From contig NW_027117347.1 in assembly GCF_038025025.1 (NCBI RefSeq), positions 310,001 to 374,000 on the forward strand: a DNA stretch of 64,000 nt, given 5' to 3'. Position 1 is the stretch's first letter, and the number at the start of each line of letters is the position of its first letter. Source of the stretch: Phyllosticta citribraziliensis. Its lineage: Eukaryota. The notes below the pieces were generated by a model. It had not been told where the DNA came from. It saw only the letters and a program-made list of their open reading frames with translations, and made no database searches. Position numbers and translations under genes: made by a program. This document shows positions 34,637 to 62,081 of the stretch, piece by piece.

Positions 34637-35275
34637 AGAGTCGAGAGGCGGGCAGGCGAATGGGAACGGACCGGGCGTTTGGCGCATGAAAAGTCGAGGG
34701 TTCATTGGCATATTGGTGTATGACGGACATGGGCGGCATCTGGATTGGTTTGGCTACATATTCCGGTCAAGCAGGTAACGCAAGGATGCCAAAAGTCGAG
34801 TTCTTGGAGGAGGCTACAAGTCACAGAGCGAGGAAACAAAAAGAGGTTTCGAATGATAGCTCACCACCAAACATTTCACGTGTGTCCAAGTGCCGTCGTC
34901 GGGTTCCCTGTTTAATCGGGTGGCTGAACTACCTTGACGTGGGTTAGCCACCCATGGATGCCGCCCGAAGCCCGGCCCGTGCGCTCACCACCTCGCCGGC
35001 TCAGCTACCTCTCACTGCACCTCTCATTCGCGCTCGCTACACACTCGTCCTGCAAGCCCAGAGACACACCTGACGGACAGCCTTTTGCTCCTCGGACGCC
35101 GCCCGTCACCGCTGCTCCTGTCTCCAATCCATCTCTCAATTCATTCCCCCCTCTCTCTGTACCAATATCATTCATGACTTTACGACTTGATGACCCAGCC
35201 TGATACCAAAAAAAATACCCTCCCACCCTTGGCCTCTGTCGCGCTTTGCTTTCATTTCATCACATCGCCCCTGTC

Positions 35276-38200
35276 ATGTGGAACAAACTCACTGGAAAAA
35301 GCGACACCTCGTCGCAAGATGGCCGACGCAAAGACCAGCGCCGCCGCACCGGCTCTGTAGCCTCGTCCCATGCCTCGCGCAATCCGACGCGCCTGGAAGA
35401 CCGCAGCGACTATCCACCAACTCTGTCCTCTCGGGGTACCACCTATCCGCCACCTCCATCCTCTGCCTCAATTGCTTCGTACGCCACTGCCCCAGACCGT
35501 CGAAGTACCATGGACCACGACGTCCGGTCCGAGCGGACCGCCGCCTACGATGATCGCGAGGATGATCCGCGCTCCACGCGCACAGACAGGCGTCGCGACG
35601 ACGAGTCGCGCTCTGAGCGTTCCTCCAAGCACCGTGAACGCTCCACCAGCCGAGACCGCAAGCGAGACCGCGACGACACTGAACGCGAACACAAAAAGAA
35701 GGGCAAAAAGGACACCAAGGATGGCAAGGAACGCCGCGAAAAGGACGAACCTTCGAAAAAGTCTACGCACAAGTCGCGGGCCCGAGCGAGCAGCAAGGCC
35801 GACGACAGCATCGTCGACGAGCCTGTCCGCCCTCGCGCTGGAGACTCGCTTCAGCGTGGTGATTCATATACCAGCCAAACCGCGTACCAACCATTCAAAT
35901 ATGCGACGGAATCTGCGCCTACGACCCCGGCCGAACGCCTCGATGCTCACGTCGGGGGCCAGTTCCCTGGCCAGAACCCTTCTAAGTACGCTGGCGCATA
36001 CCGTCCACCGCTCGGTGAGGCGACCAGCTACTATGGCGACCAGGGTGAATCCGTAACCTACCAGCCTGGAGTGCGCGTTGAAGACCCAGACATGTTGATA
36101 AATCCTCATACTCACCTCATCACTCCATCGGCTGTTCCCCAGCCTCCCGAGGAAACAGGTCATGGGTCGGCTGCCGACTTCTATTCCGGTACCTTTGACG
36201 TCGGAGTCGGCGAAGATCCTCCCACAAAACCTCCTCGCCCTCAGTCAATGCCCGGGAGCTTTGAGCCAGACGCTCGTCCCAAACCAACGCGTAAAAGCTC
36301 AAAGACGGAAAAAGTGCACAAACTGTCCTCTGCTGCCTCTGCTGCCGGAAGTGCCGCTTTGGGTTATGCTCTGGGGAAGCACTCTAGCCACAATCAAAGT
36401 GGAAGCACTCACGTAAGCAGCCGCATTGAAGAGAACGTCGAAAACTACACCTCCAGCTCTGGCAAAAATTCTGGACATTATTCAACCTCTTACTCAGTGC
36501 CACCAAGTGGCGACTATGTGCCCCCCACCAGCCAGTCTGACAGACCTGGCGAAAACTACATTTCTGGAGACAATCTCGGACACCGTCCGACATCTTACTC
36601 AATGCCACCAAGCGGAGAGTACGTGCCAGTTACCAGTCAGGCCAGCAGGCCAGGATTGACGCAATCTTACTCAATGCCGGCGAGCGGAGCCTACGTTCCC
36701 GTCGCCAGTCAGTCCAGCAAACCAGGCATGTCATCCTCTCACTCTAATGCTGGTCTCTATGCAGGTGCAGCTGGTCTGGCGGCGGGCTACGGCCTCCACG
36801 AACTCCATTCATCCCACCATCACTCTCCTGCATTGCCGCCTCGCCCGAGCCAGAACGGCAATCACGGATCTCAAGGCCTCGGTTATGCCGCGCTAGGCAT
36901 GCAACACAGGCAAAACGGGCCAGTTTCCAAATTTGTGGACTGGTGGAAGGATCATGAGGATGTTCGCAAGATGGAAGAGTACACCGAGTACATTGGTGTC
37001 TGCCGTGATTGCTTCGATCCTCGAGAACCTCCGTCCATGGCTCCCCGAAAGCATCACTATCACCATCACCACAAACGCCGTTCTAACGGCTCACTTCGCT
37101 CCAACCGCGTCGACAAGGAGAGCCGCTACCACTACTCTTCGTCCGATGATGATGGAAGACGCAATAGCAATTCGTGGGTCGCCAAAGGCCTCGCTGGCTA
37201 CGGACTGGCAAAAGTCGGCAAGGCCCTTTGGTGGCAGAATCAGGACTTTGACGATACATACAGTGCGAAGTCTGGCCGGCGCTACCGCTCATCTCGATCC
37301 TCGACGGGCCGCCGCAGCAGAAGCGGATCTAGAGACCGCACGAGCACAACCTCCCGCGGTGTCATCCGCCACAGGAGCAACTCGAGGGACTCGCGCACCA
37401 GCCGAAACTACTCCAAGACCATCAGAGACTACAAGATTGTGCACCACCATGGTCACTCGAGATCGAGGTCGAGGTCAAGAGACAGGAAAAGCGGAGTCTT
37501 TTCTGCTGCAGCCGGCGCCGCTCTCGGAGCGTCACTGGTTGGTCGTTCCAAGGAGAGGAGCCGTAGCCGCTCCAAATCTCCAAGCCGTGAGTATGTCATC
37601 AAAAAGAGCTACGTCGAGAAGCCCCGAAGCTCAGGCTCCGCGCTAGGCGTAGAAGACGCTCGTCGATTTAGCTCTCGTCACTCCACGACCTCTTCACACG
37701 TCGACCACAATTCGCACCGAAGCTCGAAGCAAAACTCTACCGGCGTTTTTGGATTGTTTACCAGTGCAGCATCTGCCTCCGACCGCAGAAAGACCCACTC
37801 CAAGAAAAAGAAGGGCTTCTTCACGTTTGCCAATGGCTCATCCTCATCGACCGACTCTGGCCTAGTCTATGGTGGCAGTCCAGAGCTGAGAAGACGCAGC
37901 AGTGAACTTCGTCGCAAAGGATCGCACAAGAAACGACGCAATTCTGATGACAAGTTGAACTCTACATTGCTGGGGCTCGGTGCTACGGCTGCTGCTCTGG
38001 CTGCCGTCCAGGGTCGTCGTGATGAAAAGACTCGCAGTAAGCATCGGCCTAGCCCTGAAGTGATTGCCGTCCGCGAAAGCAAGAGCCGCAAGCACCCGGA
38101 CAAGCGTCAGCACATGCCTGGCTCTTATGATATTTCTTCGTCGGAAGACGAGGAGTGGGAAGAAGTGTCCGATGCTGAAGACGACGCTGCCAGTATCGAT

Positions 38201-41200
38201 ACCGGTCTGGCATTTGGAGACTATGCCCAGTCGATCAAGAGTCGCAAGAGCGTAGACAGTCTTCGGTCAGACGGATCAGGCACAAACAAATGGGACTGGC
38301 GCTGGGGCAGCAAAAAGGACAAGCGCAAGCGCACCTCGACCGAAAGTCTCAAGAATGGCACGCACGTTGACGGCAGAAGCAGTGTCAGCAGCGTGCCTAC
38401 ATTGCAGACCGTCTTTCCCGTCCCAACCTCGGATCCCACCATGTTTGACGCTGCTGGCCGCTCATCTTCCATCCCGTCGACTCCTCAGGCCCCCTATGGC
38501 CACCCTCTCGTCACCTCCCGTCCTGAACCTCCTCCTCTGCAACAACCACAACCCATCATGCCCGTGTCAAATTCCATCTACACTAGCCAGGCTCCAGGCC
38601 CCTCATACATGGCACCCTCTGGCCCACCAGTCTTTTCGAGCGGTAGGCCGCCCTTGGCCAACTTTAGAAATTCCTCTGATTACTTCCGCGCTGAAGACCG
38701 TCCTATGAGCTCTCCGCGCCGAGAAGAACCTTCAACACCAACAAGCTCTTGGAAACGTGACGCGGCCATTGCAGGTGTAGCTGCAGCTACTGGTGCTGCG
38801 ATAGCCACAGCCCATTCCCATGCGTCATCCAAAGCAGGGTCAAGTTCTCCGAGCCAATCCACGGCGTCGAGGAGAGTTAGTTCTCCAAGCTCGGTCAGAT
38901 TTGACCTTACAAAAGAGCAAGAGGCAAGGGAGGACCGACAGAGGCGCAAGGATTTGAGAAAGAAGGAAGAGGAACAAGCTGAACGTGAGCGTTTGCGTCG
39001 TCTTGAAGACGAAGCTAGTCTCAAAGAAGCCAAGAAGCGTGAAGAGGCTGAGAATTTGGCTGCCATCAAGCGCGATGCGGAAGAGATGCAAGCTCGAGCT
39101 CGAGAAAAACGAGAAAGAGAGGGAAGAGCGTATGCGGCAAGCGAAATGGAGCGCGAGACTCGGCGTATCCAGAGAGAGCGTGAGACTATGGCCCTCCAAG
39201 CTGCCGAGCTGGAGCGCGCTGCTCGGGACGAAGCTGAGCGGCTGAGGCAAGAGTCGGAAGCCGCTACTCGCCAGCGAGAAAGGTTGGAACGTGAAATTCT
39301 CGAGGCAGACTCGCGTCGGGAACGAGAGCGTGCCGAAGCTGAAGAACGCCAGCCTTCTGAATTCGAATACGACGTCGAGTCCAGGGAACGTCAGCTTCAA
39401 GAGAGAGAAGCAGACGTTGTGGATCCGAACAAGTGGTCCGGCTGGAAGGAGCCTGCTGCTGCTGTTGGCATTGCTGCGGGTGCTGCTGCTGCTGCCGCTG
39501 GTCTTGCGTACAGCTCCAAAAATGACCTACACGAGGCACCGCGGGATGACAGTCCGCGCGGTGGAAGGGTTCAATTTGACGATGACCGCAATCACGAAGA
39601 GCCGTCCTTTGATCCAGACTACTTCCGTAAAAGGGACCAGGCTCGCCCTTCCTCGCGCGATAGGGAGAGCGACATTGTCCGCAAAGCCGCCTCAAAGGTT
39701 CTCGCCGACTATGACGACGACAGCGCCAAGGTGTTGGCTGATCTAGAAGAGCGGTACAAGGAACCTCAACGCAGGCAGAGCATGGCGGAATTCTTTTCCC
39801 CAAGCGAGCTTTCTGACCGCAAAACCTCCATCTCAAGGGACTACTTTGGACCCAATGCTGATGCTGATGTTCAATCGTTCAATGTTCCTCGGATCGTCAC
39901 AGTCGAGCCGCCTTATGCTCCAGAATACAGCTTCACGGCCACCCATGATGACGAGGATGCGCACAGGTACAATGACATTCCCAGGCTGAACCTCATTGAG
40001 CCGACGCCACCTGTCAGCGTAGCCAGCAGCATCCGAGGCGATCGTTCGCACCCCACGTCACCATCGATGCCCGCGCACCACGATCCAATCACGACTGTTG
40101 AAGAGGAAGTCGAGCCCAAGGACGACAAGCAGCCTAAGAGACCCGGTGTTACCTGGGGTGTGGATGAGACGCACTACTTTGACACGCCGACCCCAGACAG
40201 CGTCCGAGAGCACTTTGTGTCAGACCAAGACTTGAGAAAGAGCGCCTTGGAGGAGTTGACAAGACGCAAGGAGCACGAACAAGAAGATCGCCAGCGCGAG
40301 CGGCAAGAGCATGATGAAATTGTGGTCGAACACGACTCGCCCAACTCTCCTGGCAAGCGCACGTCGTATCGTGTATCTCCTGAGCGCTCTTATGCTGAAG
40401 CAGAACTCCCTCCCAAGCCAGAGCTCGACCGCAAGCCCAAATCTAGATCATCCGATGACGACTCGCCGGTGGAAGAAATCAAGCGATTCGAAGACGATGA
40501 CCGCGAGATCATTGAGGCTACGTCTCCGGAACGCACGCCCGTTGTCCTCACGCCCACAGAGCAAAGGGGTCAGTTCTACCAGTCGCCATTCTTCGAGACC
40601 GTGTCGGATTTCACGACGGCGTTCGACGTTAGCCCGACAGGGTCTGCTTCTGGGTTCGTCGAAGAGCTTGGACCTGATGAGCGGCCTGATGTCAGCGAAA
40701 GGGGCATGCCAGGTGCTTGGGGGTTTGTCGAAGACGATGTCGCGTCCAATCCCTTCAGCGACACGCGAGTCGTGGAAGAGCTTCCATCGCCGACCGAGCC
40801 CCACGCAAAAGACCCCGACCTCCAGCCAAAGGTCGAAGAAGTGGAGGACCAAGTCTTTGAGAAGCCCCTCAGCAAGCGCGAACAGAGGAAAAAGGACAAG
40901 GTTGCCAAACGTGGCAGTCTTGGGCATGATGATTCTCCGTCTGTCGCTTCGACGCCAATGGATGAGCCTGTCCCGGAGGAGCTCTGGGAGGATACCTCGA
41001 GCTCCAAGAGCAAGAAGAAGAAGAAGAAGAATCGTGATTCCTTTGGCATCGACACTGGCAGCGCATCTGCGTCTGTTGCATCCACTCCCGTTGCCGAGGA
41101 ACCCGCTGCCGAAGACTTGTGGGCTGAGGTTCCGCTGTCGAAGAAGGATAAGCGGAAGAAGAAGGAGCGTGATCGCGAAGAGAAGCGAATGGGGCGCGAG

Positions 41201-44200
41201 CGCGATCCCAAAGACATGGAGCCTTCGATAACTACGACGAGCGGATCCTATACCCCATCGGCGTCTGGCCTGGACATCGCGGGGGATGCGGCAAAAGGAC
41301 TGGGGTACGCTGCTGCTGCGGGAGTTCTCGCGGGCGCAATGATGGGCTCCAAACACACGGAAAGGCAACCAGAAGAGCCCCGTGGCCGAGAGCAAACCTC
41401 CCGCCAGCCTCCGTATCCTACGGAAGATCCTTATATTGGCTTCAGCCAAACTCCTGGGTCCTATGGCAGCGAGGGCGAACACACACCCTCGGGTACCTTT
41501 ACATCAACCGCTCCGTACATTCCCAGCAGGGCTTTTGACGACGTCGAGGAACTTGCAGATGCAAAGAAGCCGGGCAAAAAGGGCAAGAGACGCTCCAAGT
41601 ATGGCAGCCCTAGTCCAGGCAGCCCTTTGAGGACCGAGGTCGCATTCGACGACTACGTTGGCATGGACGCAGCGGCAGCTGCGACAGCCGCGCTCCCGCA
41701 TGGCTCGAATGCCGGCGCGTACCAGACGTCAGATTTCGCAGACGCCGTCAACGCCCCTTTGCCAAAGGACGACGCGTCTGTCAGCTCGCGCGAGTCGGAA
41801 AAGGAGTCCAGACGCAGGAGGCAGTATGTCTATGACGAGCCTGAGGAAGCCGGTGTGCCTCTCTTCGCGTACCGAGAGCAAGAGGCCGACAACGAACGCA
41901 ATTCCGTCTTTGCTTACAGGGACGATTGGAAAGAGCACCGCCGCGGCAGCCGCCAGGAGAGCGAAGGCGGCGTCTCTCGAGAGGGCGGCGATGCACGCTC
42001 CACGGCGTCGGATGAGCGTGTCGTAGACGAACACGGCCGCCGGAAACATCGTCACCACCGTCGGCGGGAGAGTGAGCGCTCCGACAGCACGCGCGATGCA
42101 GATACGCGCTCGGTTGTGTCCGAAGGTCGGTACGACGAAGAAGGCCACCGCAAGCACAAGCATCGCAAGCACCGCTCTACCGGCGTCGATAAGGATGATG
42201 TGGGCGCTGTCGTGGCCGAGTTTCGTGACGACGAAGACGACGACCTGAGGCGCAAGCATAAGCACAAGAAGCGTTTCGAGATCGAGCCTACCATCCCCGA
42301 ACGCCCAAAATCTGATCCCGGCGTGGAAGATGCTGGCGAGGAACGCCGCAAGCACAAGCGCCGGTCAAAGCGTGAAAGCGAACGAGGCGACGACGAAGAT
42401 AATGTGTCAATAGTTTCCGGTCCTGCTAAGTACAGCGAGAAGGAGAAGGAGAAGCGAAGCAGTCTCTTTTCATCTCTCTTTGGCCGGTCCTCGAAAGAAA
42501 GTGTTGCATCCCGCGAGTCCAAGGACGACCGCAGCATCGACGACGAGGAACGCAAACACCGCAGGCGCAAGCATAGGAGCTCCACGCTGCAATCATCCTA
42601 TGCTTCGGATCCAGAGGACGACGGGGTGAGTAGTACCACGGCCAGCCGCCGCCATCGCAGCAGCAGCAGCAGACGCGAGAAGGAATCGGCTCGAGACGAC
42701 TCAGGTATGGACTACAATTCTTCCCAACAAAGAAAACATGAACACGACAAGGTATTTGACTACTACCCATCATCGCGTGTTACTGCTTCTCGTTTCTCTG
42801 CATATACGACCGTTGGGGATGAGTCGCGGTCTTTTTCGCCAGCAGCCGTTCTTAGTGGTGGTTCTCCTTTTCCTACAACTATCGAGGATGATGATGGCGT
42901 TGGCCATGTCTACGATGAAAGACGGCAATCTTTCCTATCTCGTTCATCTTCTCCTTTGAGCTATGTTGATGATGCAGTCGAGGATGTACTGAGCACTGGT
43001 CTGAAACAGATTTACACGTCCACACCACCAACCGCCACCACCGAAGCGGCTCCCTCGGCAGACTTGAGTAATCCCCTTCCATCCCAGCAGATCCCACACG
43101 TTGCCTCGCAGACAGAAGAAGAGAAGTCTTTTTTATCCCGTCGGGCAAGAGGTCCTGAAGCCCCTGCCAGCTTGACCAGCCCTCCTCTGCCCATCAATAC
43201 CTCTGTCGGACACGCCGCACAGCAGCCCCCTCTGCCATCGGCAAGTCACCAACATCCCCCGACCACAGCTGCCTCCCTGCTCTCTCTGGGTGGTGATGAG
43301 AACGATCCCGAATTCGATGAAGCGTTTCCAATCTTTACAGCGCTTCCTCCCAGTCGGCCTGGCTCCCCTACAGGCATCGTTCCCGCCACTGCCGATGAGT
43401 CGACTGTCACTAGTCCTCCGCCCAGCCTCGGCATCAATACAAAGGCGTCGAGGCAGGTTGAAAGTCCAGCCTCAGGCATGCGGTCGCCGTCTGCTACTGC
43501 AATTCCACTTCGCTTCAGGATTGGTGCAAGTAGGAACGTTAGTGGTGGCACGAGCGCTGTGCAGTCGCCCGTGGAGCCGCATCACGGCAGCAGTGCAACG
43601 GGCGGTGCATGGGACGAGCATCCCCAGCATCAGAATTTCGGCTTCTCGCCTTCCCCGTCGCCTTTCCAGGACCGCTACTACGCACAGGCTCCATGGCAGC
43701 AGCCGCATCAAGAATCTGCTGCATCATCGCCGGTTCCAACGACGATGCCAACGCCGACGCATTCACGGCATGCTACAGCCTCGCCCATGCCCTCACCCAC
43801 TGCGATTCCAAACCCCTTCTTCCGTCCCCGCCCTTCGTCCATGCACATGCACAAGAAGACGTCTTCCGCTGGCGTCGTGTCGACGGGCAAGGAGTTTCGC
43901 CCCCTCTACCTCGTCGAGAGCGTGAGGGGTCGAAGCAAGAGCTCCCCTTCCGGCGTCAGGGGCAAGGAGCGATGGACGGCGGACGAGCAGGCTTGGGCCG
44001 AGGCGCGGGATGATCGGTGGGACGATGTGGCCGTGGAGGACTTGCCGGCTTTGCCAGGCAGTCGAAGGGGAAGCGAGGCTAGTGTTCAGAGCGCGAGGAG
44101 TGCCGATGACGAGCCCGAGGGTGATACGGCAAGAGGGGATGTTGAAAATGCAGCGCAGCCGGAGATGGTGGAAATCTCGCGCAACTCCCCTGTGCATTCA

Positions 44201-47200
44201 CTCGCTGAGATGACACCTGCACCGACCTCGACAAATGTCTTTGACTTTTTGGTTCAAGACAATGACGACGATGAACCGACCGGTACCACATCCACGCAGG
44301 ATCCGCCAATTGAAAAAAACCCAAAGGCGTCCGCTTCGAAGAAGTCGTCTCCGGCCTCATCACTGTTTGGTGGACTACTCAGCCGCACTTCTTCCAAAAA
44401 GGGCAAGAAGGGCAAGAAGGCGAAGAAGCTGGGTACCGCGTCGCCGCCTCGCTCGTCGTCCCCGCCACCACGCGACCCAGAGCTTGACCTAGCGTGGCGG
44501 GAAAGAGACACGGCCGATGCGGTGGCCGATTGGTTCGAAGGCGGTGATGTTTTGGCTGGCGAGAGTGCCGCTGACGCCGCAAAAGAGCCAGGAGAGCCGA
44601 TTGCGAAGGAGGAGGAAGAAGCGCCGAAAGTGGTACACGTCCCGCCTGCGTTGCTCACAAGAGACAGCAAGGGCAAAGGCAAAGCCAAGGCGAAGGGCAA
44701 AAGCAAGGCAAAGTCGAAGAAGGGCAAGGACAAGAGCAAAAGTGAGGGTCAGAATGACGACGATGTCCAACAGGAGGCCGGCGATCTTAGCTTGTCCGAG
44801 GCACCCACGCCGGGCGCCGCAACGCCGCTCGAGGCACCAGACCCGTCCCGTTCGGCATCTGGCTTCGATAGAGACGTCGACAGGGATTTGTGGCGCGAAG
44901 AGATCGAGTCACATCGCTCTGGTAACGAGAGATCCCGTTCACGCTCGCCGCGAGCGCCCTTGGAGCCTCGAGAGGTCGGTGAGGGACAGCAGATGAGCGC
45001 TTCGCGAGATCTGGGCGAGGGCCCCCATGTTGAGACCGAACAGGAATCAGTTGCGCCTCGGGACGACCCAACTGTCCAGCCTCTCGCTCAAGATTCTCCG
45101 CCAGTACAAGCTCCTGTTGACGTTTTTGCTTACCTTGAACGGGAGGATGAACCCAATGTCTCATCGATGTCGTCTTCAGCTCCCGTTCCTGAATCCGTCT
45201 CCGTACGGGCACCTATCGATGTCGAGCCAGACTCGAGCAGCTCCACAAAGGAGGAGCACAAATCGCCCGACGTTGGCGACGAGCATAAAAATGACGCCGC
45301 TGCCGTCGGCTCTGGTCTGGCAGTTGCAACAGGAGCCCTGCTCGCTGCACACGGACAAGAACAGCAGCAGACATCCCCATTGCCCGAAGCAGAACCAATC
45401 GTCGAGGAGCCCTCGGTTCCAGAGCCGTCTACCCCAGCCGACGATTCAGACTTGAACCCCGTGCTCGCGCCAGCCAAGGTGCCGAAAAAGGACAAGAGGA
45501 AGGCGAAGAAGAAGAATAAATTGCTGCGTGGACAGAGCGATGAGGGGGTCACGACTGTGCGTGCTCCTTCTCCCGCTCCTGCTGCTGCGAAGGGGCTGGA
45601 AGTGAAGACTGCTGGATCGCTTTTGTCGGAGTCGGGGTCAGCGCCTGCGGTGGGCGATGATTCGAGTTTACTGAAGACTACTGGTGGCGATGAGGGGGAG
45701 GGAGTGGGTAAGCCAGCGGCCACGCCTATTTTACAGGATGAAGGGACGACGGGGCGAAGTGAAGTCGAACTCCGTGGAGTCTCTGGCGACTTGGACGTTG
45801 CACAGCCGCAGAGTTTGGAGCCTGCCATGCTCCAGGAAACAGGCCCAAGTCTTAAAGAGGTTCAAGAAGAGCGGGCAGTCGGCGGTGACTTTGATCAAGC
45901 AGCCACGCCACTCGAACAACCGTCAGACTTCCATCAAATATCACATGCCCAAAGGCAACCCTCACCTGAGCTTGAGCACGACTTCCCGAGACACGGGTCC
46001 GGTGGCGGTGCGCAGTCGATTCCTACCGACCACCATCACGAAACCCCAGATAATGAGGCATTCTCCACTCCCCTCCCACTCTCACCTCCATCGTCACCTC
46101 TGTCCTTGCCCATCACCTCGGCCGTCATGGAGTCAATCTTTTCAGCCACAGAACAGGCCGGGCACCCACGCGGTCTTGCCGAGTGGGATGACAGGCAGGA
46201 ATTGGGAAGAGACAACGTCGCCAACATGCCTCTGCCCGATTTGGCCGAGGACGGGATGCATTTCCAGAGAGAAGGACCTCTGAGGGAGGGCGAGCAAAGC
46301 CGTGGGTTGGAAATGGAAGAGAGGAACGATGTCAAGACCGCTTCCATAAGTGGCCACACTCAGCTGGAGGACCAAGCTTCAAATTTTCAAGGCCAAGCAT
46401 CGTCCACAGTCAAACCGCAAAAGATTCCCATCCCTCCAAACTACCTCGAACAGCCCATCGTCCAGGAGCCATCATCAATCGGACAATCTCAAACGCCGTC
46501 CTCCGCGTCGGTCGATACACCACCTGCTGCCGGAAACGTCGCTACTCCGACCGCAACCACGCCCGGCAAAAAAGGCAAAAAGCGCTCCTCTTCCGTCGCG
46601 GCCGTCACTGCGGCGCCATCTGCTCCCCTTCCCACCCTTGCTACTCCGCCGCCGGTCCAGAAAGCACGCAAACGCGGCGAGCCGAGGGCAAACAAAGAGT
46701 TTATCCCGTCTCTGGAGGAAACGGCCGCGCCGGTGCCAATGTCTGAGCCTGTCTCTTCACGCTCATTGCCTCTATCCGCTGAGGAAGTAGCCAGGCCGGT
46801 GCAAACGTCTGAGCCTGTCTCCTCCCGCTCATTGCCTTTACCCGTTGAGGAAGAGCGAGCAGGAGCCGCGACGCCCGAGCCCGAGCACGATCCCGAGACG
46901 TTGGATAGCGGCGTCAACACTCCGCCTATCCACGTCCTCGAAATGGGCCAGGCTGTGCAGGTCGAGGTCACGTCGCCGACGCAGAAACCGACGTCGGTCG
47001 TTGTGGGACAGGCCATGCCCGTTCCCGGGCGTTCAGAGCGTCCGGTTCCCGTCTCGTTGCAACACGAAGACGACGGGATTCGGGATCGCGATGGCTCGTT
47101 TGAAAGTGCAGGGCTTGAAGGGCAAGAGGGCGGCAGTGAGGAGCGAATGAAGCGCGATCGAGATATCGCCGCGGCTAAGAGGCAGCTGGAGGCGTTGGGC

Positions 47201-50200
47201 GTTGGCGCGCCGTTGGAGGTCGTCATGGAAGACCTGGCCGAGGCGAATGTGGAGAAGGAGCAGGAGCAGAAACAATATCGACGGCGTGACGACGAAGAGA
47301 AGTTGGCTCCCGCCATTGGCCCTGATGCTTTGGCCTACGAGGGCATCGAACCTGCGGGAAAACCTTTGGAGACACCCAGCGTCGAGACTCAAGAACCGAG
47401 CCCCTTCCCGGCTGGACAGCGCTTCGAGCCCGAGGAAGCGGGCGACGACGAGTGGGCCGTGTCGACCAGCAAGAAAAAGGGCAAAAAGGGCAAGGCGAAG
47501 AAAGGGAAACAAACTTCCCCACCAAGCACTCCTCAAGAGGCTGAACCCGAGTCTGCTCCTCGCGTTCTCACCAGTGAGCCGCCTGCGCAAGAGTCGCCAA
47601 CCGATTTGTCCTTTCAGCAACACCAAGAGCGGACAATTGGTGAAGAAACCACCTCGGGAGCCGTGGCGGCCGAGCCTGAGGAGGCTGGTGATGACGAGTG
47701 GGCTGTCCCCGTCAGCAAGAAGAAGGCCAAGAAGGGGAAGAAGGGGAAGCGTGCCTCACTGCTGAACTCACCGCCGCTCGAGCCTCGAACTGAATCTGTC
47801 GAGCCTTTGCAAGACTCACGACTCGACGAATCGGTCAACGAGCCCTCTGTCTCACTCAAACCTGATCCGCCAACTGAAATTGACCGCGAGCAGCCAGCGC
47901 CCGAGGAGGCCGAGGCCACGGCTTCGTCTACTTTGCCCACGGAAGTGACTGCAGATGACGAGTGGACTATGCCCAGCGCGAAAAAGAAGGGCAAGAAAGG
48001 AAAGAAAGGAAAGCGGATATCCCTGCCCGGTAGTCCTGCACCCGAGCCTGTAGCGAGCGAGCGAGAGCCCGAAGTCGTCGAACACGCACAGGAATCCGCC
48101 TTCGACCGACAAAGCGAGGGGCCTGCGTCGCAGTTTGCGGCTAAGGACGTTGCCGACGACGTTCAAACGCAACTACAGACCGAGGACGCGTCGGCTGCTC
48201 CCGCTGATGCTGGTGGAGAAGCAGGCGAGGAGGAGTGGACGGTGCCTGTTAGGAAGAAGAGTAAGAAGGGGAAGAAGTGGAAAGCTGTTGAGCCGGCTTC
48301 CGACTCGGTCACTGCTGGTTCTGGTACCATTATCGAACCGGAGTCTCGGATGGAGCCCGCATCGTTGGTTGAGCCCGCAGTTGAGTCTGAGTCTGTCAAA
48401 GCTGTGGACGACGATCCTTCAGACAGCCAGACTGTCCAGATTAAGGAGGAAATCCCGACGGATTCTCCGCTTACACGGGAAACTCGTCAGGACGATCAGA
48501 TCAGCGCAATTCAGCCAGAGGAGGCGGGTGAAGATGAATGGGCCGTGTCGAGCGGCAAGAAAAAGGGGGAAAAGGGCAAGAAGGGAAAACGAGCTTCCCT
48601 TCCCGTCTCTCCACCTGCCGAACCTGAGCTAGAGTCTACAGTAAAGCCTGTCTCCGACTCTTTTGAGACCTTCCCAGGCCCTGTGGTCCCGGAGCAAGAG
48701 ACGATTACTCGTGACCAAGCAAGCAAGACGCTCGGTGAGCAGGCTGCCAGCGATCAAGAGGCGATGCCGACGGAGGCCGGCGAGGATGAGTGGGCCCTGC
48801 CCGGGAAGAAGAAGAAGGGTAAAAGTGGGAGGAGAACGTCAACACAAGGGTTGGGGGCACTTGAATCTGAGGTGCCGGGCAAAACCTCTCTTGTTGACCC
48901 CAATCAAGATTCACAACACCTCGACGCAAGCATGGAAGCGAGTGGTGAGGCAAACAAGCCCAGCGCCCCTGTTGGCGTGGAGCTTGGCGGGGACCAGTTG
49001 CGTGCAGAGCATGCAGGTGAGAGCGACTCATTGCCTACGATGACAGTGCCGCCCACCCAGGAATCTCACGGCAGTGAGATCACGTCGCAGTCTTTGGATG
49101 AGCCAATAATCCGAGAAGAATTGGAGACGGCGACTTCGCCACAAGAAGCTGATGAATGGTCAATCCCAAAGAAGAAGAAGAAAGGCAAAAAATCAAGATT
49201 GTCGCTACCAAGCACGCCACCCGTTCTCGAAGATACCGAGAGGCAGATTGAATCGAGTGAGGAGCAATTCATCGATCCGAGTGATGTTCTCAAGTACGCG
49301 TCAGCTGCGTCGGTCGAAAACGAGCCTCCAATGGTCGATTCGAAGTCAATGGACAATCAACCGCAGGAATTCCACCAGGACCCGGTTCTGCCTGAAGTCG
49401 AGCCCGAGAGGGGCGCTTCTGGTGATGTCGAAGAGTTCATCGACCCAAGCGACGTGCTCAAGTACGCCGCAGCTTCCCAGGCGGGACAGGATCGCTCGCT
49501 GGACGAAGAGGAGCGCGCTGCGGAGTTTGACGATCCGAGACCAGTCTCCACTGCTGAGAATGATGCACCGCATCAAAGATCTGCCTCGCCTGTGGCAGAG
49601 CAAATTACCGATCAACCGTCCATTGCAGAGCCTTCTTTCCAAGCTGACGACTCCGACTTGAACCCAGTCCTCGCGCCAGCCAAGGTATCTAAAAAGGACA
49701 AGAAGAAGACCAAGAAGAAGAACAAGCTGCAGGCATCTCTCGCTGACTACGCGCCCCTCGATTCTTCCCAAAACGCAACCGACACGGAGCCTCTCCTCGC
49801 CCGTGAGCCCTTCGCGGAACCTTCAAGTGCGCGTCCAGTTCAGACTGAAGACGCGCGACCCCAATCACCACAGGCGCCCGCAGCCACGGCCACGCCTGAG
49901 GATGAGTGGGCCGTGCCAGCGAAGAAGAGCAAAAAGGACAAGAGGAAGTCGAAGAAAAGTCGTGGTGCGGCTTCGCCGCCGATGCCTCCGCACGAGGGCG
50001 ATTTGATGGCCGGGGTTGAGTATTTCTCGCCGACAGAGGAGACGGAGCGGGCGGCACTCGATGAGCCTACGACTTTTGGGCTCACTCGAGATGTCGCTGC
50101 ATCGGTGCCTGAGAGGTCTTCTCGTGGTGAGGCTTTGGGCATGTTCGATGAGGGTCTCGTGTCTGGTGCTGGCTCTCCTGCTCCGAGAGAAAATTTGGAG

Positions 50201-53200
50201 GAGAGTTCTAGGAGAGGTCAAGATGTGGAGCCGCTACCTTCTTCAGAACATGAGGGCAGTAGAAAGCGCGAAGTTGACCCTTCCCCGGAAGGACCTGTCC
50301 GTAGGTTACCGACTCCACATGAGACCTCGGGCGTCAGTTTCGTACAAGACGAACCCATCAACGAGCCGCAAGCCTCAAAGAGCAGACCAAAGACGCCTGA
50401 AGAGCGCGCTAAATCACCAAACCGAGACATTGATTTTGCCGCAACGGTCGCCGCCGGTTTGGAAGGCGCTGGTCTCGACGCCAATCTCGTTCTCAATGAC
50501 CCGGCCTTTTCTGAGCGCAAGAGCCCGCCTCGCTCCACGGGCGAAGCAGACCCTGAAGAGGTGTTTATTCCAGCGCGGCCTCGGAAAAATGAGAGCACAG
50601 ATGCCACGTCTCCACCGGCTGAGAAAATCAAGAATACATCGACATCTGGAGAAAAGCTGTCGGGCCAGGATGCTGCCTTTGACGCCGCGCTCTCGTCTGT
50701 CCTCGCCGATCCGACGTTCAACAGGCGGACTCCGTCTCCTGACTCTGCCAAGGAGGCCGTGTCGGATGAATTCTTCCCTTTTCAGAAGAGGTCGAAAAAG
50801 AAGAAGAGCAAGGCACCTGCTTCTGAGGAATTGCCGGCGACTCGGGAACGCATCGAAGATTCAAGAGCGTCGGCTCGCAACTCTACTGGTATACCGTTCG
50901 CAACGCCCGATGACAACGAGCCCTTCTCAGATCCCGGCACTCCGTTTGAAGAACACATGACCGAGTACTTCCCAGTCGGCGCTGCTCATCCGGCGGCTAC
51001 TCATATACCTCCACCTCCTCCACTGCCAAATCTTGGCGAAGATGAGCAGCATGAGAAACCAAGGAGAGAGGGGCTGGGTTTGATGGGTATGGGGAGTTCG
51101 TCCAAGTCTTGGGCGGAGCAGATGGAAGAGGAGGAGAAGAAGGTGTCGGGAATGGAGGAAGACGAGGGGATGATGGGAATGGGTGGTAAGGCGGCAGCGG
51201 TGGGGGCTGCTGGTTTCGGAGCTGCTGGTGTGGCAGCTTTAAGGCATCGAGGCGACAGTGAAGGAGGAGAGGAGACCGGAGAATCCGTAAGCAAGGCTGA
51301 TGCGAACATGGCATCTAGCCACCTCGGTGCGTCCAAGAGTGTGGAGGATTTCAAAGTTACGCCAGAGGAGAGGCCGTTCTCACCACCAACTCCAAGCAAG
51401 CTTGCTCATCTGTTCCCCGGACTGGAGCGCGTTAAACGGCGCGTGCCATCGCCTAGGGATGATTTTGAGCAGAGCGTCCCAGAGCGGAGACCGTCACCGA
51501 TCAAGCAGGACAACAACGCGGTCAGACTTACCCAGCCGATTCAATCGAACTGGAACCCTCTTATCCGCGACAGCGCCGTCACCATGAACGATACGCCTCC
51601 TTTAGGCGTCGACGCGTTCCACGATGCTGGACGGGACAGCGGGTATCATGATGACTCGAGGAGGGAGTCGGCACATGTTCCCGGACAATTGCTCGATCCA
51701 GTTCCTGAGATTGCAAGGCATCAGGTTGAGGGCCCAGCGCTGACATCGAACCCTCAAGACAACGCGGCGGCATCGTCTCCAACGGAGTCAATCACGACCA
51801 CCAAGCAACGATCATCGGCTTTGTTTCAATCGCCGGGGTCTACAAATGAGGCACCTGCTGAGTCCCAAGGACTCGCTGAGGCTTCTGGTCATGGCAGTAC
51901 TGCGCCGCCTTTTCCTCAACACGTTACGGAACCAATCACTGTTCCTGCGGAAACTACTCAGCCGTACGTGTCCATCTTTGGCGACGGCGTTCCTGGGTCT
52001 GCTGACAAGCCGCCTCCAAGTTTGACTCCTCCCAGAATGTGGTCACCGCAGCCTCTAGACACGATCAGAGAGCACAGCCCGGAAGAGTCTCCCTTGGCCA
52101 AAAAGAGCAGACCTCTGTCTGACGTAGGGATGCCCGAGCATGGACTCAAATCCATGCGCCGATCGGACACGGAGGACATGGAGGCCTCTCCGCGACTCCC
52201 GAGCGACGATAACGGACCGCCCAAGAAGATCTGGTCAGGAAAGCCGCCAGAGAAAGGGCCTGGTCGCGCACGCGGTGCAAGCGTGGGCAGTGATGTGGCA
52301 GTGTTAAGTGGACGGCGGTCGCCGAGCGGGCAAAGTGACCTGTCTGCGGCAAGCAAGGGCGATTTTGGCAGCATATTCGCCAGGATCAAGACGCCAGATA
52401 TGCTCTCGCCTGCAGGAAGCACCCTCAGCCAGCGATCAGCGACTCCTCCGCTGCGGCGAATCAACAGGGCCATGTCAGGTGACTTGAGGACGGCAAGTCT
52501 GGTTGCCGAGGCCAAGGCGTTGACGCGCTCCAACGCTCAGACCGCCGCTCCCTCAGCAACCACCGCCACTGCCGGCCCGTCAACATACGACCGCGTCCAC
52601 GACAAGGGCAAGGCGCGGGCCCTGACCATGAACGAGGAATATGTACGTGTCTCTGCTGCTTCACTTGTCAATGACTTCCAATGGCTGACTTCTATTTCTC
52701 TGCAGGAGGGCTGGGGTGACGCACCAGACACGCCTCGATCACCGTCGAGACCGCCGAGCATCCGCAAGCGCCAGAGCATGCACATCATGGACCTCGAGAC
52801 GCGGCTCGACCAGCTCGTTTCTGAAAACCGCCTGCTGCAGGATGCCAAAGCGAGGGCTGAGGACCATCAGCGCGACTCGACCGATCGGCAAATAGCCGAG
52901 GCCGTCCAAGCACGTGATGAAGAGCTGCGCGCCAAGGATGCCGAGATAGCTTCCATCAACCAGACGCTGGCCAGTTTGAGGGAAGAGATTGCCCGTCTCA
53001 CCGATGTCAATGCTTCTCTCGCTGCTTCCAACAAGAACCTCACCGAGGATACCAACCAGCGCTATGCTACGCTGCAGGTCGAGACGCAGCAAGCTCAAGA
53101 ACAGTATGAGCAGACCACGGCCGACCTTGATCTCCTTCAGCAGCAGTACCGACATCTCCAGGCCGGCGTAGAGGGCGTCGTGCGCGACGAGGTCAACCAT

Positions 53201-54286: not shown

Positions 54287-55281
54287 GCCGCTGGCGTTTG
54301 GGGTCTGGATTGCTAGTCCTGCGATACGGGCATTTTTGATTCTGGGTTCTGACTGGGTCTCTTTTTACTTCTTCGGGTCTGCTTTTTTTCTCTTCTTGGG
54401 TTCTCCCCTTTTTTCCCCCTTCACTATTCTTTTGTAATGACTTTGATGCCTCTCCTTTGGGGTTTGGAGCTGGAGGGAGCGGACGTGAGGGCTGGAGCAG
54501 AGAATGACGTGGTAGTTGGGGGTCTCGGCGGGTGGAAGGACAAAAATCGGAGGCAGCGAGCGTGCGTGCGTGCATGGCTTGCGATCGGTATCAAAATCTG
54601 CACAGCAGACACGCATGATGGTCATGGGGATTGGGGTTGGAATTGGGCATGATATATAGCGTGCATGAGGTAGCGAACAAATGACGATCTGAACTACGAT
54701 GACGAGCTTGTCTCCTTTTCTTCCATACTTTGCCTTTCTGGCAGCAAAACACGGCTTTGTTAATAACGCGTGACAGGACTGATAGAGCATCATGTGGTGC
54801 TTGACTCGCCGCCCACGTCGGAAAGAAGCGTTTAGCTCACTCGAAGAACACTCATCTTTTGCCAAGGCAGTGAGTGATGTCCTCCCGAATTCTCGCGACG
54901 CAAAGGCGAACTGAACTCGAAAGTCCCTGATCAGGGTAGTGACGGCGACTTTATCTGACGACTTTGTCTGTCGCCCAGAGCCACCGAACACTTCTCGACT
55001 GTCCCTCCGCCGCTCCTTATCCCGTCGAATCGTGATAAAGGGATTGTGTGAAATATCAATTCAACTACTCTACTAAACTGCCCACTTTATGGAAAATACT
55101 AGATGGCTTACATAATTCAGTATCACCATCTACAAACGGACCTCTGTGATATCGCGGACTAGGCGCGCTGGTTGAGCAGGTTGCCTGTTCTGACAAATCG
55201 TCGACCCGTAGCCGTACGCGCGAGTGAACTGACTGACCGACCGACTAACTGGTAACGCGACCACCATACCAAATCCGCGAT

Positions 55282-56034
55282 TTACAACACCCAAATCGGC
55301 ATCGGCCGCCCAGGCAGGCCCTGCAGCAACCCAGTATTACCAACGACGACAGGCTTAGCCTTGCCATCACGGTCCTTCCTATTGCTCTTCTTCGCCTTCC
55401 TCCGCGCAACGAGGAAGTTGTGGAAGATTCGGCTGTGCGGGCGGCGGCCAGGGGCAGCACGCAGCCTTTGCACCAGCGTCTGCTGTCCTCCGTTCCCCTC
55501 GTTCGCCCGCCCCGTCAGTTGCTCCTGGATAACCGCCTCCGCTCTCTCCTTCTTCTTCCTCTCCTCGCGGAGGCGCTGGAGTCGCCATGCGCGCCTTTTG
55601 TCGCCCAGCCACTGGATCGGTCGCAAAATTTGTTGCTGGTTTCTGTTGTTCTTGTTGTTAAGGTGGCGGTGTGTGGGCTGCTGCTCCGGAACCGTGGATT
55701 GTTCCGTGGTGGTGCTGTTCTGGTTGACAATGACGAGTTGCAGTTGTCTCGGCGTGCGGTCGAGGCCTGATACTGCGATATCGAACGTCCGGACGCGTGG
55801 CTCGGGGGTGGCGGGCGCGGCGGGAGTGTCGGTCATGCCGTTGCTTTTGTCATCGATGGCGGACGTGGGGGTATTCGTGCGTTGCGGGTTGTCGCGGAGC
55901 AGTGGGAACATTCTGCAGAGACTCATTTGTCCGTGAGGCAACGGGAATGTCGCAATCATCGCCAGCGTCGATATGAAGAAGGCGACGCTGAGTACGGCAA
56001 TGGTGGCGTGCAGCCAGCAGGGAGCGCGAGCCAT
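55282..56034 (-). CDS. Hypothetical protein with an N-terminal hydrophobic segment and a basic coiled-coil-like region
   Basis: ATG at 56034 in GCCATGG context, 250 codons. Hydrophobic stretch TIAVLSVAFFISTLAMIATF and charged stretch RLQRLREERKKKERAEAVIQEQL. No recognised family. Confidence 0.45.
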   Translation of the reverse strand: MARAPCWLHATIAVLSVAFFISTLAMIATFPLPHGQMSLCRMFPLLRDNPQRTNTPTSAIDDKSNGMTDTPAAPATPEPRVRTFDIAVSGLDRTPRQLQLVIVNQNSTTTEQSTVPEQQPTHRHLNNKNNRNQQQILRPIQWLGDKRRAWRLQRLREERKKKERAEAVIQEQLTGRANEGNGGQQTLVQRLRAAPGRRPHSRIFHNFLVARRKAKKSNRKDRDGKAKPVVVGNTGLLQGLPGRPMPIWVL

Positions 56035-56536
56035 GGCGAGAGAGAGAAAAGCAAAGCCGGGTGGCACGAGAGGATTTGTGAGCGAAGGTTCGATGAGACG
56101 GCTCTGAGGTGCTATTTGTCCCTTTTTATGTTCCGCAGGGGTATTTTTGGTTGGTAATGCAGCCTTTGGATCATTCTCCTGTGTTGAGGTACTGATGCCG
56201 TAACTGAGCCAGCCCTGGATGGACAGTGAGTATCCGGATCACAATCTGTGGTGAGGGGCGAGCGAGCCGAACCACAAATGGGTGTTCCAATAGATTCCCG
56301 ACGAAAGTATGCCTTCCTGTCGGATCAGGAGGACTGGTACGAAGGATGTCGTCGCCCCTTGAAAATTCGCAGTCGTGGCAGTCGTATGGTTTTCACGCCT
56401 CCATCTTGGAGATTTCGATCCTCCCCCTCTTGCTTGGCCTCTCTGATGGCTTGATCTTTACTCCCATCTTAACCGCCCCAACTACGGAGCAGATTGGTCG
56501 GCGAAGACGACTTCTCAATGCCTCACTCCACCCACA

Positions 56537-58469
56537 TCACCCCTCAAGCAGCAAAGAACGCCGGTTTTGAAAGTGCCTGTGAGCACTCATCCACCACCAC
56601 CCAAAGCTAAACAGCGCTATAGCAGCAGCAACACAAACCGCATAATTCATGTTCTCCGCGTCGACCGGCCAGGCCGCCGGAAAGAAGAGAATGACGCTAA
56701 TGAACAACACCCAGGAGCAAGCGACGGCGTTGACGGGCTTGCTCCAGCGACCCATGGTGTAGGGCCCGTCGACAAAGGGCACGCGGTGCTCGTAGACGCG
56801 GCGCGCGACGATGACGGCCACGTAGCTGAGATCGAGGGCTGGCGCCGTCACGTTGAAGATGGAGTAGATGGTGCGCGTGCTGCCGATGCCGAGGAGGTCG
56901 AGGCAGGCGCAGAAGGCGACGACGAGCCACACGGCGTTGAGCGGGGTGCCGGTGTGCGGGTTGATTTTGCTCCAGTGACTGGTTCCATCAGCACTTGTGT
57001 CTATGTTGGTTTCGGCGACTCGAAAAGGAACCTACTCGGAGAAGGGAAGCCCGTTGTCGCGCGCAAAGGCATACGTCATGCGCGCGTTTGCGAGCATGGC
57101 TGAGCACCCCGTGAAGAACTGGATCAGGATGACAAAGAACCACATCGCTGTCCCGCCGGCTCGTCCGCCGGCGTTGAGGAAGATCTGCGCCACTGGTAGC
57201 CCAGCCGTAGTGTTTACTATCGCGTCGTACTCGGTGAGGCAGAAGCAGAATGTGACGGTCAACATCCAGCCAACGAGACCGGAGACTAGAATGGCTAGTC
57301 GTATCGCAACCGGTCCGCGGATGGCCGCATCGTGAGTCTCCTCAGACATGCTTCCATTTGTCAGTGATGTTGAAAATCAGTCTCGGTAGATGTGGACTTA
57401 CTGCGTCGTCCCGTCGTAATCAGTCATGGTCCATGCCACGGATAGAAACCTCAAACCGTCAGCCAGATACGTCAACCCCTGAAAAGAAATCAAGGTACCC
57501 CAGCAAGAATGAAAACCCTCAATTCCCCCACCCAGAGCCGTCTGTCACCTCTGTGAAGACCCACTTTGCGCTTTGCTTGTTGGGTGTTAAGACAAGAAGC
57601 GCTATGCAAATGCCGACTGACGCCAAAACTGACCTCTCTGTCAGCAACCGTCAGCAACCTAAGGGTCACTCTTGAGCTATGAGAACTCACTGTTAATGGG
57701 AGCAAACCACAGCACAATCCGATGGAGAGCCTTGGTAGTCAGGGAGCAAATGACGCCAAAAAGGCACAACACCAAGATGGCAAGCAACACCGTCTGCAGC
57801 GCGTTCCTAGACTGCGAGTCAAACAAAGCCGCAGCTCAAGACCAGGAAGCGTACATACGGCGTAAAAGAATACGACCCATCCGCACGCTGGCCCGACGTC
57901 ATGACCGCCGCAGCCAACACCATCTGCGAGACCGAGTACGCCAGACTCGCCACGCCAGCAGCCTGGCCGAGGAAGTTGCTCCAGCCAATAACCCACGCCC
58001 AGACGGCGACGTGTTCGGGCGGCACGACGTGCTTTGCGACAAAGTACATGCCGCCGGCCGTCGGATAAGCCGACACCAACTCGGCGACTGCAGAAGCGGC
58101 AACAACGTCAGTGGAAAAGCCGAGACGCAGAAGAGAAGAAGTGGCAGACTGTTAAGGTGCTACCCGAGGGACGCCGCACCAGAGCTCGCTATGCACAGGG
58201 CCATGGTGCTCCCGATGAGCCAGGCCCACACGGCCGTCGCTGGACCGCCCGCCGTGATCGGGCTGCCGAATGTTGCGGGCACTGAGCCGAGCACTCCCAG
58301 GATCGAGATGGCGTGCGATACGGTCGACCACTGGGTGAATTCTCTCCGGAGCTCCTATGGTGTGGAGGTCCATGAGTTTTGGGTGCCGGGTTTGACTGGG
58401 GAAGGAGCGTACCTGGGCGTATCCCATGCGCGCGAGAAGGCGTTCGTCGTCATCCTCAACGGTAGCCAT
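56537..58469 (-). pseudogene. APC-superfamily amino-acid/GABA permease (UGA4/HNM1-like) interrupted by an in-frame TGA
   Basis: Exons rebuilt across introns 58355-58412, 58088-58179, 57807-57858, 57629-57690, 57450-57498, 57351-57401 and 56979-57035. They give LARMGYAQELRREF...VAELVSAYPTAGGMY...DGSGWGN*GFSFLLGFLSVAWTMTDYDGTTHMSEETHDAA...YAFARDNGLPFS...TPLNAVW...NMNYA. The TGA is at 57521-57519. The family call is strong; pseudogene status rests on one base. Confidence 0.75.
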
Positions 58470-59223
58470 GACGCGCTGGCGGCTCTAGTATGGATTCTTA
58501 ACTTGAATTTGCGTTTTCAGCTTGACAGTGTCTATTCGTGAGCCTCAGTCTTTAAGTGGGAGTTGGTGTCTGTCAGACAACGGGAGAACGACGTTGAAAA
58601 CTTACCAGTGCAGCCATCTGGCGTGGGGATTGATTGACTGCAGAGTCATTGAGAGGACGAATTGTCTATGCAACACCCTCAATACATGTTAGTTAGATTA
58701 TTGGAAAAGGATAAAATGCTTGCTGATGACAGTGAGGGGAGATACAAGGGACGCGTGACCTGGCGATAGGACCCTTGAAACACCTGCAGCTCAAAGGCGG
58801 TGAGCGGCATAATTGAAACGGGATGTGCAAAAAATGGTTTTGCCATCAGAAAACGCTGTTCGGCGTCGGCAGCGATAGCGAGCATTCTTTGCATGGTGTT
58901 CATTGGGACAGCAGGTCGTCCAACGGAAACCAAAACTTAGGTGGCTAGAATCGTTTTCGAGAGTCGGGGAAAGTGGATCGCTGAAGAAGTCAAAGGCATC
59001 GAGGTTTGAAACACGTCTCGTTATAAGTTACTAAAAGCAAAGTGTGCATCGTGCTGGGATATCAAATCAACGCCCATCTGAGTTCACGTCCCGACCTGAG
59101 AAACCCAAATTCGCAATCGGCCATAGGGACGACAAGTGAAAGAAAAGTCCCGTCCATGAGGCATAGACTCGTCAGCCAATTCCGAAGCCGTAAAGGAAAG
59201 TTCAACTTGTACGCGCATCCCTC

Positions 59224-61783: not shown

Positions 61784-62081
61784 GTCGGCAGGCGGGCTGG
61801 CAGAGAGTGGTTGGAAAACGTGCCGGTGCAGCCTTACCTGTGTCCTTGGAGCGAAGGCGGCGGGAAAGACGACGGCAGGATGTGGTTGAAGGTGGACACT
61901 GGAGTGGCACACGCAGCTGGTGGAGGGGAGGCATGAAGAACCTTGGCGTCAACACGGCGCCACACCACTCATGAGGTGCTGCGCCACAACACAGAGCTGG
62001 GGACTGCCTCTGCAGTGGATGCATGCCAACAAACGCCCTCTGGATTTCTCTGTACTTTTCCATGTAATGCTACAGACTGCC

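Follow-up and report, generated by a model that had tools for sequence, protein, structure and literature searches.

Leashin (LAH) proteins bind the Woronin body through their N-terminus and the septal pore through their C-terminus. The tether is a giant protein of about 5,900-7,500 amino acids (aa) found in the Pezizomycotina (PMC2690989; this and the other articles cited are drawn on in excerpt). In Neurospora crassa, reverse transcription polymerase chain reaction on lah gave seven new introns, of which six are in frame and one, intron 10, changes the frame so that LAH-1 ends in a 2,607-bp exon, according to the excerpted account of Ng et al. (2009; PMC2690989). Introns that are a multiple of three in length and free of stops are generally depleted, as reported in the available part of a study of Yarrowia lipolytica (PMC2911113). 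Here we describe an in-frame, stop-free intron of 258 nucleotides (nt) in the middle of a leashin-like gene of Phyllosticta citribraziliensis. The gene lies in a 64,000-nt stretch, the window (RefSeq assembly GCF_038025025.1, contig NW_027117347.1, positions 310,001 to 374,000, forward strand), whose first letter is position 1. From the letters of the window, an earlier reading (the original prediction) had proposed that two donors in this region, at 42752 and 42705, switch the gene between a full-length tether and a truncated, untethered form. The features concerned are given below, with a slash marking the splice position.

35276..54286, plus strand: leashin (LAH)-like gene, ATG at 35276, stop at 54284-54286; frame open through all internal introns
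42752..43009, plus strand: RNA-confirmed intron, 258 nt, phase 0, stop-free, GT..AG; junction 42751/43010 in 4/4 runs
42752..42757, plus strand: used 5' splice site AAG/GTATTT, weak, without G at +5; RNA joint
42987..42993, plus strand: branch-like TACTGAG, with the A 17 nt upstream of the 3' splice site; not a canonical CTRAY
43007..43009, plus strand: used 3' splice site CAG/; RNA joint
42705..42710, plus strand: donor-like CAG/GTATGG; pairing with 43009 would delete 305 nt and cause a frameshift; used by gene model P0125
42626..42631, plus strand: consensus-like GGG/GTGAGT, 126 nt upstream of the used donor
43069..43071, plus strand: TAA ending the frame-shifted 42705 model (in-silico join)

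A 258-nt segment is spliced from the leashin-like transcript

Five RNA runs were found with the stretch, and the assembled contigs of four of them (X1, X2, X3 and X5) were aligned to 42200-62000. The alignments yielded 29 joints, of which the best 15 are listed and considered here; the other 14 are weaker. A joint was expected to have at least 31 letters on each side. The contig joint 42749 to 43008 (skips 258, GT..AG, cut +2) corresponds to an intron at 42752-43009 and is present in all four runs, three of which have at least 31 letters on both sides.

X1: depth 1606, side 255
X2: depth 14.7, side 255
X5: depth 3.69, side 65; labelled as an RNA-Seq library, from a diverged relative
X3: depth 69.1, side 28, under the 31-letter rule; from another relative

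Every listed piece of X1 and X2 has 0 other letters, so these two runs are of the window's own kind. The X1 depths in the two bins over the intron match those of a single spliced contig (1606.1 x 550/661 = 1336.4 and 1606.1 x 514/661 = 1249); there is therefore no other X1 contig inside the intron. Neither X1 nor X2 holds a retained-intron contig, a result drawn from contigs, which cannot establish the absence of retention. The runs are labelled 'RNA?'. The same contigs, however, skip 12 further segments of 49-87 nt in the gene and in neighbouring genes; the ends are GT..AG or CT..AC in 11 of these and CT..GC in the twelfth. As DNA would not do so, the runs are RNA.

The segment 42752-43009 is a true spliceosomal GT-AG intron, and donor 42752 with acceptor 43009 is the assembled form. 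The original prediction held that donor 42752 is in use and keeps the full-length protein, which the joint in 4/4 runs bears out. The junction check that it proposed, carried out here on assembled contigs, likewise reveals the junction and identifies the segment as an intron.

Intron-like composition and atypical splice signals

The two donors, the branch-like TACTGAG and the AACAG ending at 43009 all lie where the original prediction had placed them. Position 42752 is codon position 1, and the segment comprises 86 codons in phase 0. GC content drops from ~0.60 to 0.46-0.49 over the segment, and AT skew is negative across 42700-43000. Across the 86 codons the GC content of third positions (GC3) is 0.337, whereas the gene averages 0.604 (standard deviation 0.084); the share of T at these positions (T3) is 0.488, compared with an average of 0.22. 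Of all 86-codon intervals of the gene, the ten with the lowest GC3 and the ten with the highest T3 begin at 42698-42776. The segment, described in the original prediction as more T-rich than its flanks, is thus the extreme of the 6,346-codon frame on both measures.

With T at 0.33 and GC at 0.48, the segment falls inside the range of the 12 other introns. In other respects it is unlike them. It is 258 nt long against 49-87 nt, which makes it 3-5 times longer than its neighbours. A G at +5 is found in 10/12 of the other introns and is absent from the GTATTT donor. CTRAY also occurs in 10/12 of them, but the 258-nt intron contains none, offering only ACTGAG 17 nt before the acceptor. The intron, although intron-like in composition, is therefore atypical in its length, its weak donor and the lack of a canonical branch motif, departing both from the local consensus and from the typical length.

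The consensus-like donor at 42626, which the original prediction had missed, would with acceptor 43009 delete 384 nt (128 residues) in frame; it has no joint among the best 15 of the 29. An introner-like element or structured RNA was also considered and rejected, as its fold has a z-score of +0.84 and is equalled or bettered by 155 of 200 shuffles. No second copy of the intron was found within the 64-kb window.

The 42705 donor and gene model P0125

Joining 42704 to 43010 in silico produces a frameshift and a 2,477-aa product with a 20-residue tail ending at the TAA at 43069-43071, which reproduces the tail and stop that had been predicted, along with a length put at ~2,500 aa. A search of a representative library identified a public gene model, P0125, that is exactly this product. 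It equals 35276-36707 + 36765-42704 + 43010-43071 letter for letter, matching the window protein up to ...DDS before entering the shifted tail. The full representative library returned P0003 and P0125 only. A search of P0001 against proteins of 526-2,000 aa found no mid-length model covering the region among 8,000 scored candidates.

The 42705 junction is not among the best 15 of the 29 RNA joints in the four runs, whose contigs drop rare variants. P0125 is the choice of a predictor and is not proof that the 42705 splice is used. The G at +5 of 42705, which gives the better consensus at that position, probably explains why this donor was chosen. The new stop is followed, more than 9 kb downstream, by further exon junctions, and nonsense-mediated decay is expected. 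P0125 is probably a mis-annotation or, at most, a minor isoform that is likely degraded by this route. In at least one annotation the tether gene consequently appears truncated, and possibly split (P0125, 35276-43071, plus strand).

The frame is open in relatives and the peptide diverges

Only 1.5% of 20,000 shuffles of the 258 nt remain stop-free in frame, and the other two frames of the segment hold 3 and 8 stops. Relatives that read through the segment preserve the frame. P0003 carries 86 aa with 57/86 residues identical and no insertion or deletion, and P0004 carries 68 aa with 41/68 identical and 18 codons absent in several blocks. The blocks of P0005, P0006 and P0008 are 64, 58 and 60 aa in length, respectively, and all are open and in frame. 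Across the six read-through Botryosphaeriales sequences (the window and five others) the segment is stop-free and a multiple of three in 6/6, at varied lengths of 258, 258, 204, 192, 174 and 180 nt. These data suggest that truncated products are avoided rather than made.

Evidence that the position is intronic beyond Phyllosticta comes from an NCBI model of Lasiodiplodia hormozganensis, P0007, which reads ...HYK/DD... without the block present in P0008. The two proteins are 93% identical, and the 60 extra residues of P0008 begin with V and end with K. This difference fits a phase-0 GT..AG intron at the homologous site, and the intron position is therefore common to two families.

The peptide itself is poorly kept. 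In P0003 the upstream flank retains 94/100 identical residues, and a motif of this flank lies at the same relative position in Botryosphaeriaceae orthologues. In BLASTP among 122 orthologues the intron peptide matches only P0003 and P0004, whereas the upstream flank matches 23. Against P0003 the 3' half of the intron peptide is better kept than the 5' half (34/43 and 23/43 identical, respectively). About 0.20 substitutions per site would account for the 29/86 residues that differ from P0003, which is close to the rough third-position divergence estimated from the X3 differences in the flank. No broken forms, sought as C-terminal fragments of more than 3,490 aa, were present among the four Botryosphaeriaceae matches in the 120 listed giant proteins (described below). 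In a metagenome scan aimed at DNA of relatives, none of the 599 pattern stretches matched was confirmed.

The open frames make a moderate case for selection against stops and frameshifts in the 258-nt intron. The orthologue alignment that the original prediction had called for, performed here at the protein level, gave a divided answer: the segment is intronic in the Lasiodiplodia model and its frame is kept open in 6/6 sequences, but its peptide is poorly conserved.

The gene resembles leashin

The frame at 35246-54286 is uninterrupted over 6,346 codons (~19 kb), and the product predicted once the two constitutive introns (258 nt and 63 nt) are taken out is 6,229 aa, a giant size that fits the leashin range of about 5,900-7,500 aa. 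The top match over the region, at 80% identity, is a hypothetical protein from Phyllosticta paracitricarpa whose record is partial. A search restricted to giant proteins of 3,490-11,106 aa gave 504 relatives, the best 120 of which are listed, and the C-terminal 497 aa display 56-76% identity to these 120. The named relatives among them are mostly Pezizomycotina (Dothideomycetes, Eurotiomycetes and lichen-forming fungi), with three filed under tree species. Many of the strongest C-terminal matches among those listed carry the name 'Involucrin repeat protein', which is the database name of AFUA_2G08060, a Woronin-body tether of Aspergillus fumigatus (PMC8227032, in excerpt).

In BLASTP, N-terminal blocks and a C-terminal block of ~600-930 aa are collinear in 9/9 orthologues. 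The N-terminal blocks stop by query residue ~1,900 in 6/9 and reach ~2,290 in the closest, P0007. The middle (~2,300 to 5,370) is unaligned in the nine, save for one short block near residue 5,050 in 4/9. The net charge of the product is -174, and conserved ends flanking a poorly conserved charged middle are of the LAH type. Just upstream of the 258-nt intron, at 42404-42751 (plus strand), lies a peptide island (..SGPAKY.., ..LFSSLFG.., ..KHRRRKHRSST.., ..DDSGMDY..). It corresponds to residues ~2,400-2,500, at the start of the non-conserved middle, and is kept in orthologues from Botryosphaeriaceae and other Dothideomycetes.

Simple hydropathy and composition tests point to a coiled-coil-like stretch of 136 aa without P or G, located 509-373 residues from the C-terminus, and to a hydrophobic 19-mer that ends 230 residues before the C-terminus and whose hydropathy peak is modest (1.19). 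In the excerpted description of A. fumigatus Lah, a C-terminal coiled coil precedes a hydrophobic membrane segment located ~220 aa from the end (PMC5345055); the two proteins thus share the order of coiled-coil-like stretch and hydrophobic segment, the latter ~220-230 residues from the C-terminus. The link to A. fumigatus Lah rests on family name, architecture and taxonomic spread, and not on direct alignment. The Lah sequences of A. fumigatus, N. crassa and A. oryzae are absent among the 120 listed matches, and Pfam gave 0 families on five pieces of the protein. On these sequence comparisons, the gene looks like the leashin orthologue of a Phyllosticta-like fungus.

Other introns in the gene and its neighbours

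Three further introns were identified or predicted within the same frame.

51964..52020, plus strand: 57-nt GT..AG segment, a multiple of three, stop-free, alternatively spliced (spliced joint in X1, read-through in X2)
52643..52705, plus strand: 63-nt phase-0 intron, spliced in 4/4 runs (side 255 in X1, X2 and X3, 89 in X5)
36708..36764, plus strand: 57-nt in-frame intron of P0125 only, predicted (GTCAGT..CTAAT..CAG), outside the RNA-aligned range 42200-62000

For the segment 51964-52020 a spliced joint is listed for X1 alone (depth 743, side 29). The main X1 contigs break at both ends of the segment, and contig 8 of X2 runs through it unspliced. Its GC is 0.61, it contains the branch motif CTGAC, and its peptide is conserved in P0003 and P0004. 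The 63-nt intron lies just before a conserved ...EGWGD... block and is stop-free in the window. Its position is also spliced in models of Botryosphaeriaceae (Lasiodiplodia), Aureobasidium and Sarea, and several unannotated read-through proteins cross its homologue, within which the frame of P0004 stops. The segment 36708-36764 must be cut to reproduce P0125. The three RNA-confirmed introns within the frame are all stop-free and multiples of three. A motif scan for further short introns in the frame gave 22 hits, comprising the known ones and many that were unspecific, and was set aside.

In the minus-strand neighbours at 56979-61764 the RNA contigs reveal ten short introns (49-87 nt), one of which, at 60046-60100, is a GC-AG intron found in 4/4 runs. 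A joint from 44419 to 49168 on the plus strand (4,748 nt, GC..CC, side 21; X1, X2 and X5) is most likely a repeat-induced assembly join and not a splice. Positions 44419 and 49168 both lie within repeated units of a lysine-rich and acidic linker.

Discussion

The evidence is best explained by a real phase-0, in-frame intron whose 42752/43009 splice is the assembled form, with the P0125 truncation being minor or an artefact; we give this reading a probability of about 0.8. Removal of the 258-nt intron, together with that of the 63-nt intron, would produce the full-length tether of ~6,229 aa. The tether would remain complete if the 258-nt intron were left in the transcript, its linker being 58-86 residues longer. 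Selection against stops and frameshifts would avoid N-terminal fragments that bind Woronin bodies without reaching the septal pore. Several points weigh against this interpretation. The RNA evidence consists of assembled contigs, from which rare variants are lost and splicing ratios are not available. X1 and X2 may share a strain with the window and are perhaps not independent of its assembly. P0125 could rest on transcript evidence. As for the frame, the boundaries in P0005, P0006 and P0008 were set by homology and not by RNA. A substitution-only neutral simulation left the frame open in 28% (P0003-like) or 21% (P0004-like) of trials. Since the divergence of the intron is about that of the third positions of the flank, the intron peptide looks unconstrained. 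Finally, the 63-nt intron is closed in P0004, which indicates that stop avoidance is not general for the gene.

The proposed switch, in which Woronin bodies are tethered or not according to the regulated use of donor 42752 (full tether) or donor 42705 (the 2,477-aa fragment), is very improbable, although part of its basis stands. Both donors exist, 42752 is used, 42705 has the G at +5 that 42752 is without, and P0125 uses exactly 42705/43009. Minor or condition-specific isoforms could escape contig data, and in Neurospora a frame-shifting splice at intron 10 makes the C-terminus of LAH-1 (PMC2690989, in excerpt). However, the 42752 junction occurs in 4/4 runs and the 42705 junction in 0 of the 15 joints listed of 29, such that the latter splice is known only from P0125. 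The X1 contig is unbroken across the 42752 junction, yet X1 contigs do break at the alternatively spliced 51964-52020. The alternative frame adds just 20 residues and no substantial C-terminal domain, its message is expected to be subject to nonsense-mediated decay, and the open frame in 6/6 read-through sequences suggests that truncation is avoided. The notion that the segment is simply a coding exon, the junction being an artefact of assembly or alignment, is hardly credible. The frame is open and the public model P0003 reads through it, but the GT..AG junction appears in four runs representing at least three divergence classes, contigs extend 255 letters on each side with no mismatch, and the homologous block is left out of an independent Lasiodiplodia model from NCBI.

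Two explanations accept the intron and differ on its frame. The segment might be a functional exitron, both forms of the messenger RNA being translated and the 86-residue insert modulating linker length or adding a short motif. A stop-free length divisible by three, a disordered linker and weak splice signals are hallmarks listed in the available text of PMC5602073, the frame is open in 6/6 sequences, the C-terminal half is better kept (34/43 versus 23/43 in P0003), and the same gene has a truly alternatively spliced segment at 51964-52020. We nevertheless regard this as unlikely. X1 and X2 provide no retained-intron contig, no part of the gene has less exon-like codon usage (GC3 of 0.337 versus 0.604), and, among the 122 orthologues, the peptide finds P0003 and P0004 where its flank finds 23. 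Coding-type constraint is not apparent, as the divergence to P0003 fits ~0.20 neutral substitutions per site, and the conservation at the 3' end is explicable by branch-site and acceptor sequence being translated in frame (codons containing CTGA). Alternatively, this may be an ordinary intron whose open frame reflects chance and ascertainment with no selection on the frame. The window was flagged for its open frame, making the argument post hoc; under neutral substitution alone 21-28% of trials end without a stop; the three Phyllosticta sequences, being related, are not independent; and the 63-nt intron is open in the window and closed in P0004. Chance is, however, a doubtful account of the whole pattern. 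The starting probability is about 0.5% (one third for length x 0.015), the six segment lengths differ and are all multiples of three, the three Botryosphaeriaceae segments are all open despite strong divergence among them, and no broken forms were present among the four Botryosphaeriaceae matches, though these would be retrievable as fragments of more than 3,490 aa.

Within the preferred reading of a real in-frame intron, a more specific proposal is that the leashin gene contains a mid-gene 'fail-safe intron', kept translatable by selection across the Botryosphaeriales as its sequence and length (174-258 nt) drift. Failure of splicing on the ~19-kb message would then yield a complete tether, and never a competing fragment that binds Woronin bodies. 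This proposal is tentative, and we consider it possible rather than probable. If true, it may extend to other hidden in-frame introns of leashin genes, and it runs opposite to the usual depletion of stop-free introns that are multiples of three. It also suggests a testable idea, that very long genes with interfering truncated products may keep their introns translatable.

The more immediate consequence is a corrected gene structure, with at least three introns in what looked like a 19-kb 'single exon'. The error in P0125 would make a normally tethering species look Neurospora-like, with a split locus. A switch between tethered and untethered forms, though it would be interesting if true, is unsupported. 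The gene supplies an RNA-supported example of hidden in-frame leashin introns outside Neurospora, one of which keeps its position across two families. Our literature search found no report of leashin splicing beyond that of Ng et al., and no fungal exitron was named in the titles of the literature matches listed.

Among known systems, exitrons (Marquez et al. 2015, as cited in the available part of PMC5602073) are alike in lying inside an apparent coding exon, in being stop-free and a multiple of three, in their disordered region and in their weak sites. As described there, however, exitrons are mostly retained and exon-like, whereas 42752-43009 is removed in every assembled contig and is, in composition, the most intron-like part of the gene. 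The segment 51964-52020 fits the exitron picture better. With regard to the trend in Y. lipolytica, the leashin gene is opposite, its three RNA-confirmed in-frame introns all being stop-free and multiples of three. Intron 10 of Neurospora lah is alike in idea, as a frame-changing splice inside leashin ends an N-terminal protein. In the excerpt of PMC2690989, its 2,607-bp exon provides the cortex-binding end and is followed by an internal promoter for lah-2; at the present locus the corresponding tail is 20 residues, the junction is not among the RNA joints listed, and none of the features of intron 10 is shared. The closest likeness is to the other hidden introns of Neurospora lah, where, in the same excerpt, a giant tether frame conceals in-frame introns that are visible only in RNA and that alter the polypeptide little. 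The 258-nt intron is a further case of these already reported hidden in-frame leashin introns, distinguished by its occurrence in the Dothideomycetes, by its length and weak signals, and by a position and frame that can be followed across six Botryosphaeriales sequences.

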